From contig NW_027122668.1 of assembly GCF_030686945.1 (NCBI RefSeq), positions 188,099-252,098 of the forward strand: a stretch of DNA of 64,000 nt. The letters run 5' to 3'. This DNA comes from Centruroides vittatus (lineage: Eukaryota). Below, one piece after another: positions 37,016 to 42,452 of the stretch. The notes below the pieces were generated by a model. That model made no database searches and was not told the origin of the DNA. It worked only from the letters and a program-made list of their open reading frames with translations. Position numbers and translations under genes: made by a program. The first letter of the stretch is position 1. Each line of letters starts with the position of its first letter.

Positions 37016-37082
37016 TAATGCCTTGAATTTGTTATCTTTGCATATCTTGCATTTCTTCGAGTTGCATATAATATATTATTAT

Positions 37083-39784
37083 ATGAAGCATGCAATGCCA
37101 TAAGGTTGTAAATGCCATTTTTCTCAAAATACGTTTTATTGAAGAAATGAATTTTAAATGCAATGTTTTTTCCTACAAAAAAATATTGTGGTGATTGTGG
37201 CGCTCTAAGTGGCTATATTTCGAAGATGACGTTATGTGCAAGCCATAACGTTTTAAGCGTCAAAGTGCAAGCCACGTGACTTTTGGCACATAAAATGTTA
37301 CGGTTTACATTTACATCATTTTGTCATTCTAATTTGTAACGCAGTGAGTTTTTTATGAGTGAAATGAATTCCTTAAAGTATGAAATACCTAAAAGAAGAA
37401 AGAAATGTGCAGAAAAATGGAAGAAGAACATTCGAAAGAAACAAAAAAATAGTGGCTTAGAGTACATTTCTCCTATATCACAGAAAGTTAATCCGAGAAA
37501 GGATCCACCAACAGGGGTAAGTAAAAGACTTAATACTTCAAAAATATAGACGTAGATTTGAGATTTGCAAGATATGGATAGTCATTGTGTCTATGCATGG
37601 GTGAACAACTTGTATATGACTGTTTCCAACAAGTTTGTCAAACTTTTTGTTTACGTTACAGGTGACTTGCAAGTGTTCCTTCGCTTGCAAAAACGTAATG
37701 TTGGCTTACCATCAGGAACTCTTCCAACAATTTTATGAACTGGCTGACTACAATAAGCAACAGAGTTATCTTCAAAGACTTGTTCATCCCCAGATGATAA
37801 AAAGGAGATGATATGGGAAGTACCACCATCCTTCTGGAAGTAGAAGGCAACACTCTTTCAGTTATCATTTGCTTCTTCCCAGTGGAAGTGAAATAAGAGT
37901 TTGCCTTAAGACTTTGTGTAATACATTCGGGGTTACTGCAAGAAGAATTCAGTTGATTGGAGAAAAGATTTTGGAAGGAAAAATGGATGCTACTGATCAA
38001 AGAGGAGGCCAGCGAAAATGTACTGAAAAGCAGTTGTGGACGGAAAAAATAATTGAACACATTAAGAGTTTTCCAAGTGAAGAAAGTCATTATGCTCGAG
38101 CCAAAAGTACAGGTAAAATGTACTTATCACCTGATCTCAATGTTAGCAGAATGTACAGAGCCTTCCTTGAGAAATATTGTCAACAGTATGCTAGGAGCAA
38201 AGCCCCAGTTACTCGACAATGGTACAATGAAATTTTCCTAACCAAATTCAATCTATCTTTTCAAAGACCTCGCATGGACACTTGCTCAACTTGTGACCGC
38301 CTTGATGTACGAATAAAAGCTGGTGATGCATCAGCAAAAACAGAACTGGAATTACATCATTACAGAGCTGAAGTAACCACAAAAGACATGTCTGATGACA
38401 CAAAAAATGCTAAAACCTCAGATTCGTATGTTATATCTTTTGACTTGCAGCAGCAAATGTATATACCACAATTAACACACACTGAAATGTATTATGCTCA
38501 ACAATTGGCATGCTACAACCTTGGAATTCACGATTCAATTAAAGAGAAAGGATGCATGTGTTTGTGGAGTGAGAATTTTGGAGGAAGAGGGTCTTTGGAA
38601 ATATCATCCTGTATATACCATTATATTACTACTGAGGCTGCTAGTGGTGACCGAAAGAAGCTGACTTTGTGAACAGACAATTGTGTTGGTCAAAACAAAA
38701 ATCAATACGTGATAGCCATGTATCTGGTGTTATTGGCCAATAATGTATTTTCAGAAATAACACATAAATACCCTGTAAAGGGTCACACATTTCTCAGCTG
38801 TGATCGAGACTTTGCTCTAATTGAAAAACGGAGGAAAAAATGCAAAGCTTACACACTAAAGGATCTTGTGGACATCATTAAAAGTGCAGGGACCAAAAAC
38901 CCTTTTACCTGCATCGTATTTGAGAAATTTCATGACTTTAAATCGATTCCCCATGCATTTTTGAATACAAAAGACCTGGGAATCTCAACAGCATCCCAAA
39001 TTAGACTCTCATCAAATAACTTTGGTAAAGTTATGATTGCTAAAGGTGGAGGTAAAGCAGCAAGGTGGTGCACTGGGCTTAATGTGCTGAAAAATGGAGT
39101 TAGCATTGATGATTTCAAAAATCTTCCACTTCCTCTTGCTCACTCCCATTTTGGGATTCCTCAAAAGAAGAAACCTGACATTGGTAAAATGATACCATTT
39201 TTAAATCCAATAGCACAAACCTATTTCAAGGAGATGCTAGCAGAACCGGATAACTAAATGCCAGTTTATTAATAGTTAACCTGTCACTTTATTATTTGAT
39301 ATTTCAAAATGATATTTGGACTTCCATTAATCTTTCAAATTTGAAGTTTTTAAATACGTTTTAACTTTTATTACACTAAATTAAAACCTTATTGATAAAG
39401 ATTACAGCCCAGTTCAAGTCACTAATAGATTATTGTCAGTTTTTAATGTTAAAATTGATATTGAATTTGTAAATTGTGTTTAATAATTTAAATGTAAGTT
39501 TTTGGTATTCAAGACTGTTTTTCAGCTGTAGAAACATTAATTTTATGACTGCAATCGTTTTTGGCATTTACAACGTTATGGCTCTAACCCTGTTTTTAAA
39601 CTTTTTTTGTTTCCTTACTATCATTCTTCTTAGGTGTTTGAAATTAAACCCAATGTTTTATTCCAAACTGTAAATTGTTAAAATAGCATTTGATTAAAGT
39701 TTGTTCATTAGAAAAAGTGTTTTTTCTCTCTCCTGAAAAATTTGTTTTTTGGCATTTACAACCTTATGGCATTGCACGCTTCAT
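37083..39784 (+). mobile_element. Complete TIR-bounded DNA transposon (~2.7 kb) of unassigned superfamily; ~34-bp TIR ATGAAGC(A/G)TGCAATGCCATAAGGTTGTAAATGCCA
   Basis: 37083-37117 'atgaagcatgcaatgccataaggttgtaaatgcca' matches the rc of 39751-39784 'tggcatttacaaccttatggcattgcacgcttcat'. A subterminal partial copy lies at 39553-39590. The element encloses a single transposase-like gene. The flanks are AT-rich and the TSD is unresolved (TA or TAT possible). Confidence 0.6.
37355..39257 (+). pseudogene. Transposase-like gene of the 37083-39784 element: exon 1 37355-37516, GT-AG intron 37517-37661, exon 2 from 37662; inactivated by one frameshift (~37810-37870) and one in-frame TGA (38673-38675); ~600 aa when repaired
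   Basis: Canonical intron 'gtaagt...ttacag'. Basic N-terminus (KRRKKCAEKWKKNIRKKQK), a Cys cluster 'CKCSFACKN', then a conserved-looking core with acidic candidate catalytic motifs 'VISFDLQQQMYIP', 'TDNCVGQNKNQYV' and 'LSCDRDFALIEKRRKK' in RNase-H/DDE-like spacing. I cannot assign it to a named superfamily from memory. Confidence 0.5.
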
Positions 39785-42452
39785 TATAGTGTCTTAATAT
39801 TTATTTATTTAACCTATACATGTCACAATTTATATACATATTTTGATATTTATAATTATTTTTATTTTATTGTATTTTTATACATGTATATTTCATTTGT
39901 ATTTAAATTTTTTGTTCCATTTTGTTTGCATTCGAATATGTTTAACCTGATGATGGCCAATGGGTTTGGCTGAAAACGTTTGTTACGTTTTTTATTAAAT
40001 TTTCTCAGCAACTTAAGTTGTTTTAGTCTTTTCTGATCTAACTATCGGTGTTCGGTCTTTTATCAATTCGGCTAATGAAGGACATTTAAGAAAGTATCGT
40101 TTGGAAATGAAAAAATCCATGGCAAGTGTTATATGCTACCTGTCACAGTAATTAAGTGAATGTAATATACATTTTTTTTGTAAGAATTATGTTTAGTTTA
40201 TGATTTTGTTAAATTTTTTGCCAATAGATGGTGCTACATGTAAATTAGCAAGTGGAATGTAGATAGAAATTAATTGATTTACAGAAATTCAATAGATATT
40301 TTGGGCTGGGATGTACGACATTATCTAAGATAGAAGTATGCAAATGTAACTGCCAAGTTTCGTTGCAATTGGTCGAACGGCGTAGGAGTGTATAGCGGAC
40401 AAACAAACAACAAACATCCTAATGCCTTTGGTTATTGTTACCAAGAACAAGAGTTTTCAAGTGGTACAAGATGTTTAAATGTAGTTTGTCATTGAAAGAC
40501 AGAGAACGCGTCGATGAACCACGTTCTGGTAGGTCATCTGTGAGGTGTGAAGCGCGATAGGAATACACAGACACGTGAATTCAATTAAAACGAATTTAAT
40601 TTCGCGATAAACAATATATACAGATGAGTTCTTTTGGATTCCCTCGGTCCAATTTCTCTTACTGTCCGATAGTAACAAAAACCCTGTAAAGTACTATTTT
40701 AGTTTACAACGATTATCGACTCTACCGTGTCGGAAACAACCGTTAACCTACCGGGTACTTTACTCGGATTCGCGTTAGCGTGCCAGGCCTGGACTTTAAG
40801 CGTGCACCGAATTAAATAAAGACAATATTTGTCAATAGAAAAAAACCAAAGATTTAATTAGTCGTTTAGCAATAACTATGTACAAGATTTAGTAAAAATC
40901 AAACAATAATTTATTCTAAGAAATTCAACAAAGTCAACCCGACAATTCTCAATTCAAATCTATATCTAACTTAACTATTCCCCTTGGGAATCCGACAAAA
41001 CCAAAAGCTTAACTTATAACAATAATTCTTATAAACTAGAGATCCTAATCGTCACCTCAATATACTCGGAACCTATTTCCTCAAACTCTCAAGACTTTCT
41101 CAGACTGTCGATCCAAATTCGAATCACTTCAAATCACCTTGGAACTATTCGAGATCCTATCGGACACCTCTCTATTACTGCTGCAAAGCTCACCAAGCTC
41201 GTTGCTATCAGAATTCACCTCTCCGTCTTCACTTGAGACTCGGGATTTATAGTGTGAGGTGACGTCACAATTCTGAATGCGGTCACTCCCCTCATTTACA
41301 TACTTAAATGCTAACAATAACGTTTTTCATCGTCTGGCAGCCCTTTTTCCGACAGTTTACTCACTAACCTTTTACATTATTTGTTTTTACAATTCTTTCC
41401 GGGACGTTTTTATTACTTAAGGTTTAGCGAGTTTTATTTCGTGCTTGTAGGTTCTCCCCCCCCTCTTCTCGGTGCGGACCTATTCTTTGCCGCTCGGGGA
41501 GCGAAACTGTGCGTGAGTCTTATGGCGCTTTTCTTTCGTCGGTGAGTTGGGTTTTATTTCTTCTCTTTTTAAATACTGAAGGTGAATGGTGAGGAAACCT
41601 TCGTCCTAACAAAACATAAGCCCCAAACAAAAATAGAATAATAAGCAAAATAAAAGTAAAATAAAAATAACGCTCGGACTTGGTTCCTTACAACCCAAGT
41701 AGCTTACCTTCTTGGAAACTACTTGCCCGACAATACTAATGAAATCCGCGCGATCCTTAACTAACTTAAACCTAAGGATAGAAAAGTATAGAGATGGGAA
41801 GTGAGAAGAATTGATAGGATAGTGGGGTACCCTTGTTCTCGCTGAACTCCGATGCCGGCTGGTGCTTTATTCTGCGTGTCTCTGGGTTCGTCAATGTTTT
41901 AAATCTCTTCTACTATAATTTCTTTTCGGTGTCTCTGATTCTACAGTCCGGATCCTCACCTCACGGCTTTCTATTCGGCCCTCATGGAATTCCGTCTCAC
42001 GAGCTCGCTGTTTCGTCCGTGCTTCCTCGTGTCCGGCTGGAGAAAAAGTGACCCTTCGTGACCCAGATTTGACTCGTCCACAACTCGAAGTCTTTGTCTC
42101 ACACGGCCCCCTGGTGGGTGGGGAGTGGAAAGCCCCTGTTCCCAGAAGCCAGAACAATGAACAAAGGAAGTTAGAAAGAAGGGTTAAGAAAGAGAGAAAA
42201 TTATTAAAACTAATTAAATCTATAATACATATGTACAAAATATATGGCGTACAGCCACACATCCACTTCAACTGATGAGCAACACGTCGCTCGATTCAGA
42301 GATATGATGCTCGACGATGATCGTCGTTAACAATTAAAAATATTAAACACGTTTCGGTCTCATTTGGATTTTGTCGAGCAATTGTAAAAAATCATTCGGG
42401 CATGCAACTCGTCGCTTCTCGAGTCGTCCCGAAAACATTGAATTTTTTCCAA

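Follow-up and report, generated by a model that had tools for sequence, protein, structure and literature searches.

A probable Sola1 transposon, inactivated

The 2.7-kb feature described here is, at a probability of about 0.93, an inactivated but otherwise complete copy of an autonomous Sola1 DNA transposon, a class II, cut-and-paste element of the Sola superfamily. It lies within the window, by which we mean the whole 64-kb stretch of DNA that was analysed. The superfamily was reportedly named by Bao, Jurka, Kapitonov and Jurka in 2009, and the RepeatMasker class for the Sola1 group is DNA/Sola-1. We place the element in Sola1 because the core of its conceptual transposase is similar to the Repbase core of Sola1-1_AP, and because its relatives are flanked by 4-bp ANNT target-site duplications (TSDs) that match the published AWWT hallmark. 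The first-pass annotation could not place the transposase and was prepared to give way to a confident assignment to a known family, and on these two lines of evidence it yields to Sola1. What it took for a poorly described superfamily is so insofar as Pfam labels the domain only DUF7869 and no solved structure was found for the family, but the superfamily itself is named, catalogued and very abundant.

Element ends and target site

The inverted repeat (37083-37117 and 39750-39784) comprises 35 nt, complementary at 34 of 35 positions. Comparison with five relatives shows the outer 2 nt on each side to be part of a 4-bp target site, so that the element proper spans 37085-39782 (2,698 bp), begins and ends with GAAGC...GCTTC, and has 33-nt terminal inverted repeats (TIRs) matching at 32 of 33 positions. 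Its ends and flanks comprise the following features:

37081-37084, no strand: left TSD, ATAT
37085-37117, forward strand: left TIR, 33 nt, GAAGCATGCAATGCCATAAGGTTGTAAATGCCA
37241-37304, no strand: two weak and degenerate inner-TIR motifs, oppositely oriented (37241-37264 at 83%, 37280-37304 at 72%)
39562-39582, reverse strand: subterminal copy of the inner 21 nt of the TIR
39750-39782, reverse strand: right TIR, 33 nt
39783-39786, no strand: right flank, ATTA

The left TIR is homologous to the TIRs of two Diabrotica copies (L001 and L002), and a Logan contig terminates precisely at ...GCACGCTTCA. The subterminal copy is oriented like the right TIR and differs from it by one mismatch in 21 nt; equivalent copies occur in L001 at 5533 and 5566. 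Matches to the inner-TIR 21-mer number three in the 64-kb window against 0.00 expected, a count reached in 0 of 300 shuffles of the element, and a scan of the window found no further TIR copies elsewhere in it. The weak copies at 37241-37304 are possible extra binding sites for the transposase, a tentative reading since they miss the 4-mismatch threshold set for the controlled scan. Together with the single gene described below, these features bear out the earlier description of a complete, TIR-bounded 2.7-kb DNA transposon with a subterminal repeat. The element lies about 70 bp downstream of the ORF of a Penelope-like element, and the surrounding region is rich in transposable elements.

The left flank, ATAT, fits the Sola1 AWWT target and holds the same position relative to the GAA... 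terminus as the duplications of the relatives. The right flank, which is AT-rich and slippage-prone, appears to be a degenerate copy of the ATAT duplication (ATTAT, in which one T less restores ATAT). The flanks ATAT and ATTA of the window copy form an imperfect 4-bp duplication that can also be read as one of 3 bp (TAT) or 5 bp (TTATA). We compared five related copies: L001 and L002 from Diabrotica undecimpunctata, L004 from D. virgifera, L005 from Leptopilina boulardi, and L003 from an ENA contig. All five, which come from other genomes, share the GAA...TTC termini, and all five are flanked by perfect 4-bp ANNT duplications (ACTT, ATTT, ATAT, AATT and AATT). An offset control on four of the relatives and the window copy found the duplication absent at every shifted position. 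AWWT/AWDT targets have been called 'a hallmark of the Sola1 transposons' (PMC3845634, citing Bao 2009), and TSDs of this 4-bp type accompany every one of the relatives. Readings of 3 bp (TAT, as for Zator or Harbinger), 5 bp (TTATA, as for Transib) and 2 bp (NN, as for ISL2EU, Mirage or Tc1) were dropped because each fits the window or some of the copies, and only the 4-bp ANNT reading fits all five relatives.

Gene structure and inactivating mutations

A single two-exon gene, with a conceptual protein of 585 aa, is encoded in the element. Its parts, all on the forward strand, are as follows:

37355-37516: exon 1, 54 aa, with the basic, NLS-like N-terminus
37517-37661: intron, 145 bp, GTAAGT...TTACAG, phase 0
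37662-39257: exon 2, 531 codons plus TAA, with the CxCx4C motif, a helical region, a Cys/His cluster, the DDD RNase H-like core and a C-terminal domain
37668-37688: CKCSFAC (CxCx4C) motif
37809-37811: premature stop 1, TGA at aa 104, aligned with Arg (KRRR) in homologs; fits a CGA to TGA change
38415-38849: RNase H-like catalytic core, approximately aa 306-450, with the candidate DDD triad
38442-38444, 38676-38678 and 38802-38804: the conserved candidate triad residues D315, D393 and D435
38607-38966: Pfam DUF7869 match, aa 370-489, E 1.4e-18
38670-38672: premature stop 2, TGA at aa 391, aligned with Trp (LIxWSDNC) in homologs; fits a TGG to TGA change

Exon 1 is homologous to the N-termini of P0032, P0036, P0040 and others, and to an upstream ORF of the relative L006. 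The 145-bp GT-AG intron noted earlier joins the exons in frame, and its position is shared with L006, whose 59-bp intron interrupts the identical codon boundary (between ...PPSQ and VTCKC); more distant homologs encode the junction uninterrupted. Exon 2 is one frame, and similarity to homologs continues across both TGA sites, each TGA being a single transition from the codon that the homologs lead one to expect. The window copy, with two nonsense codons, cannot make transposase and is dead. The first-pass annotation was right to call it so, although the frameshift and single TGA that it gave as the cause are replaced by two in-frame TGA codons in a single frame.

Protein motifs and the catalytic core

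The N-terminus of the protein, KRRKKCAEKWKKNIRKKQKN, is basic and NLS-like. It is followed by the Cys cluster, of which the segment CKCSFAC is conserved throughout the family (the family consensus starts xCxCxxxC), so that both of these features of the initial description stand. The helical region after the CxCx4C motif may bind DNA. DUF7869 is the only Pfam family that matches the protein, and a search of NCBIfam returned no match.

The alignments of homologs (29 and 45 sequences) uphold all three of the acidic blocks first noted: D315 and D393 are invariant in both, and D435 is invariant among the 29 and present in at least 90% of the 45. These residues sit where a DDD triad is expected, and catalysis by them is our inference from that position. 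Also retained in at least 90% of sequences is E442, seven residues past D435; it could take the place of D435 as third catalytic residue, which would make the triad DDE rather than DDD.

The fold was read from an AlphaFold2 model of P0001, an intact homolog 63% identical to the window protein. The model (pLDDT 87.9) has a compact RNase H-like core with the strand and helix order of RNase H, in which one Asp lies on beta1, one after beta4, and one on the helix after beta5. The structures nearest to this core are retroviral integrases and mariner transposases (Mos1, Metnase/SETMAR and Sleeping Beauty). The conserved Asp residues and the predicted fold together agree with the DDD triad on an RNase H-like fold that is looked for in a Sola1 transposase.

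Placement in Sola1

The Repbase core of Sola1-1_AP was taken from the supplement of PMC3985635. Because the Sola1 reference was compared over about 125 aa, membership rests on the catalytic core, and it is over this length that the transposase is homologous to the references. By BLASTP the window protein matches the Sola1-1_AP core at 34% identity over 121 aa (E 7e-16) and a second Sola1 representative, XP_003249065, at 38% over 126 aa (E 5e-20). A profile HMM of the family scores 158.7 bits against Sola1-1_AP and 173.9 against the other Sola1 reference; among the controls Sola2 reaches 16.9 bits, and Sola3 and Zator give no match. Moreover, the Sola1 reference cores match DUF7869 (E 1e-5) though they cover only part of the Pfam model, and the Sola2 and Sola3 cores do not match it. 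DUF7869 is matched by 41 of 44 family members, with no other meaningful Pfam match.

The architecture of the element is also that of Sola1, for which a TIR-bounded element of about 2-9 kb with one transposase gene is expected; here there are 2,698 bp, 33-nt TIRs and one gene. Autonomous Sola1 elements of insects are 2.3-2.8 kb long with a 630-aa ORF (PMC3845634), and Sola elements are described as encoding a DDD transposase and producing 4-bp TSDs (PMC10741241). The window family shares at most 72% amino acid identity with any protein in the searched collection, and this particular family may not yet be catalogued.

Alternative readings

An element of a different or undescribed superfamily, Sola1-like in its catalytic core only, is very improbable. 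The comparison does cover only the Sola1 core of about 125 aa, Pfam does name the domain a DUF, and the TSD of the window copy is ambiguous; yet the core similarity is far beyond chance both pairwise (E 7e-16) and by profile (159-174 bits), and the size of the element, its single ORF of about 600 aa, its G-starting TIRs and the AWWT-type TSDs of the five relatives all fit published Sola1. We give still less credence to an element of ISL2EU/PHIS or Tc1/mariner type that is bounded by TGAAG...CTTCA and has a 2-bp NN TSD. If the termini are so drawn, the first four relatives do show matching flanks (CT, TT, TA and AT), and the core is structurally near Mos1, Metnase and Sleeping Beauty. A 2-bp TSD, however, does not predict a match that spans 4 bp (A-NN-T) in five of five relatives, and the TSDs are not TA-specific. 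The protein has no Pfam match to DDE_Tnp_4, DDE_1, DDE_3 or Transposase_1 even at E=10, and ISL2EU differs in its AT TSD, GG termini, THAP+DDE and YqaJ proteins and length of about 4.8 kb (PMC4482050).

It is just as hard to credit that the gene is functional, either with its TGA codons decoded (by an alternative code, as selenocysteine, or by read-through) or as a domesticated host gene. Decoding is suggested by both internal stops being TGA in an ORF that is otherwise open for 585 codons and closes in TAA, but we reject it because one codon aligns with Arg and the other with Trp. They are one transition each from CGA and TGG, as random nonsense mutation predicts, and no other signs of TGA reassignment were seen. 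Against either form of this proposal, the gene lies between TIRs in a region rich in transposable elements.

Proposed mechanism and history

In the intact ancestor of this Sola1 copy, the product of the two-exon gene would have been a transposase about 585 aa long, with a basic, NLS-like N-terminus, the CxCx4C motif and helical region, a Cys/His cluster and a DDD RNase H-like core. The enzyme would bind to the 33-nt TIRs as well as to the subterminal repeats of their inner half, cut the element out, and integrate it at A-N-N-T tetranucleotides (AWWT for the most part) with a 4-bp stagger, the repair of which would leave the 4-bp TSDs. This cut-and-paste mechanism is proposed by analogy, and the DNA-binding roles are putative; neither a demonstration of Sola activity nor a functional study was found in the literature searched. 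The window copy presumably inserted into ATAT and later acquired the nonsense mutations at codons 104 and 391; its two TIR arms differ at one position, and its right TSD is blurred. An active relative might still mobilise it in trans, given the nearly intact TIRs.

Abundance and significance

The family is very large, with approximately 36,000 cluster representatives (50%-identity clusters), and no literature was found under the name 'DUF7869'. On this evidence, DUF7869 is the catalytic core of Sola1 transposases, and insect proteins annotated as 'DUF7869 domain-containing' are therefore probably Sola1 transposase genes or their remnants. Several relatives appear both intact and multi-copy; P0005, for instance, is found on seven contigs with an open ORF and a preserved TIR end, so that such relatives may still be active. 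That the element represents an uncatalogued Sola1 family, whose lineage has moved between insects that are distantly related and some of whose relatives are perhaps active, is a tentative proposal that we regard as possible and somewhat doubtful. If it is true, an active member with a compact integrase/mariner-like core and AWWT targeting could become an experimental system or a gene-transfer tool, a new system because neither a solved structure of a Sola transposase nor an activity assay was found reported. More immediately, the 'unplaceable' transposase resolves to an ordinary transposable element annotation, DNA/Sola-1, of a known though little-studied family.

Comparison with known systems

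The Pfam models of hAT, Tc1/mariner, PIF/Harbinger, piggyBac and P do not match the window protein even at E=10, in keeping with the original exclusion of these five groups. Tc1/mariner transposases and retroviral integrases have a similar core fold but show no detectable similarity in sequence (9-16% identity in structural alignments), and proteins of the window type are much larger, differ in their N- and C-terminal domains and include a Cys/His cluster. Tc1/mariner (ITm) elements also duplicate TA rather than the 4-bp ANNT found here, and we reject that assignment, the relatives' TSDs not being TA, no Pfam match appearing at E<=10, and only the core fold being similar. ISL2EU (PHIS) shares a short AT-rich target, a resemblance that arose under the 2-bp reading of the TSD. 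Its elements have a fixed AT TSD, GG termini, THAP+DDE and YqaJ ORFs within about 4.8 kb, and a DDE of IS5/Harbinger type (PMC4482050); the 4-bp ANNT TSD, the GAAG termini and a single ORF that matches neither THAP nor DDE_Tnp_4 exclude it here. Zator (3-bp TSD; TP36/ISAzo13-like), whose core, like that of Sola, had no Pfam model in 2017, was a candidate only under the 3-bp TAT reading of the flanks; it was rejected on the lack of a match between the family profile and the Zator-1_HM core and on relatives' TSDs of 4 bp, not 3.

Within the superfamily, Sola2 and Sola3 share the 4-bp TSDs and DDD triad reported superfamily-wide (PMC10741241), without a significant sequence match. Of the two Sola2 cores, one is matched marginally by the profile (16.9 bits, E 0.1), around the xDxCxxQ(Y/N)KN region, and Sola3 gives no match. 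To Sola1 itself the likeness extends to core homology, DDD-type Asp residues, a length of about 2.7 kb with one ORF of about 600 aa, TIRs that begin with G, AWWT-type 4-bp TSDs in the relatives, and a patchy occurrence among insects, in which distant hosts carry highly similar elements (PMC3845634). The phase-0 intron conserved after exon 1 is a detail of this lineage; the window copy's own TSD is degenerate, and no feature conflicts with Sola1.

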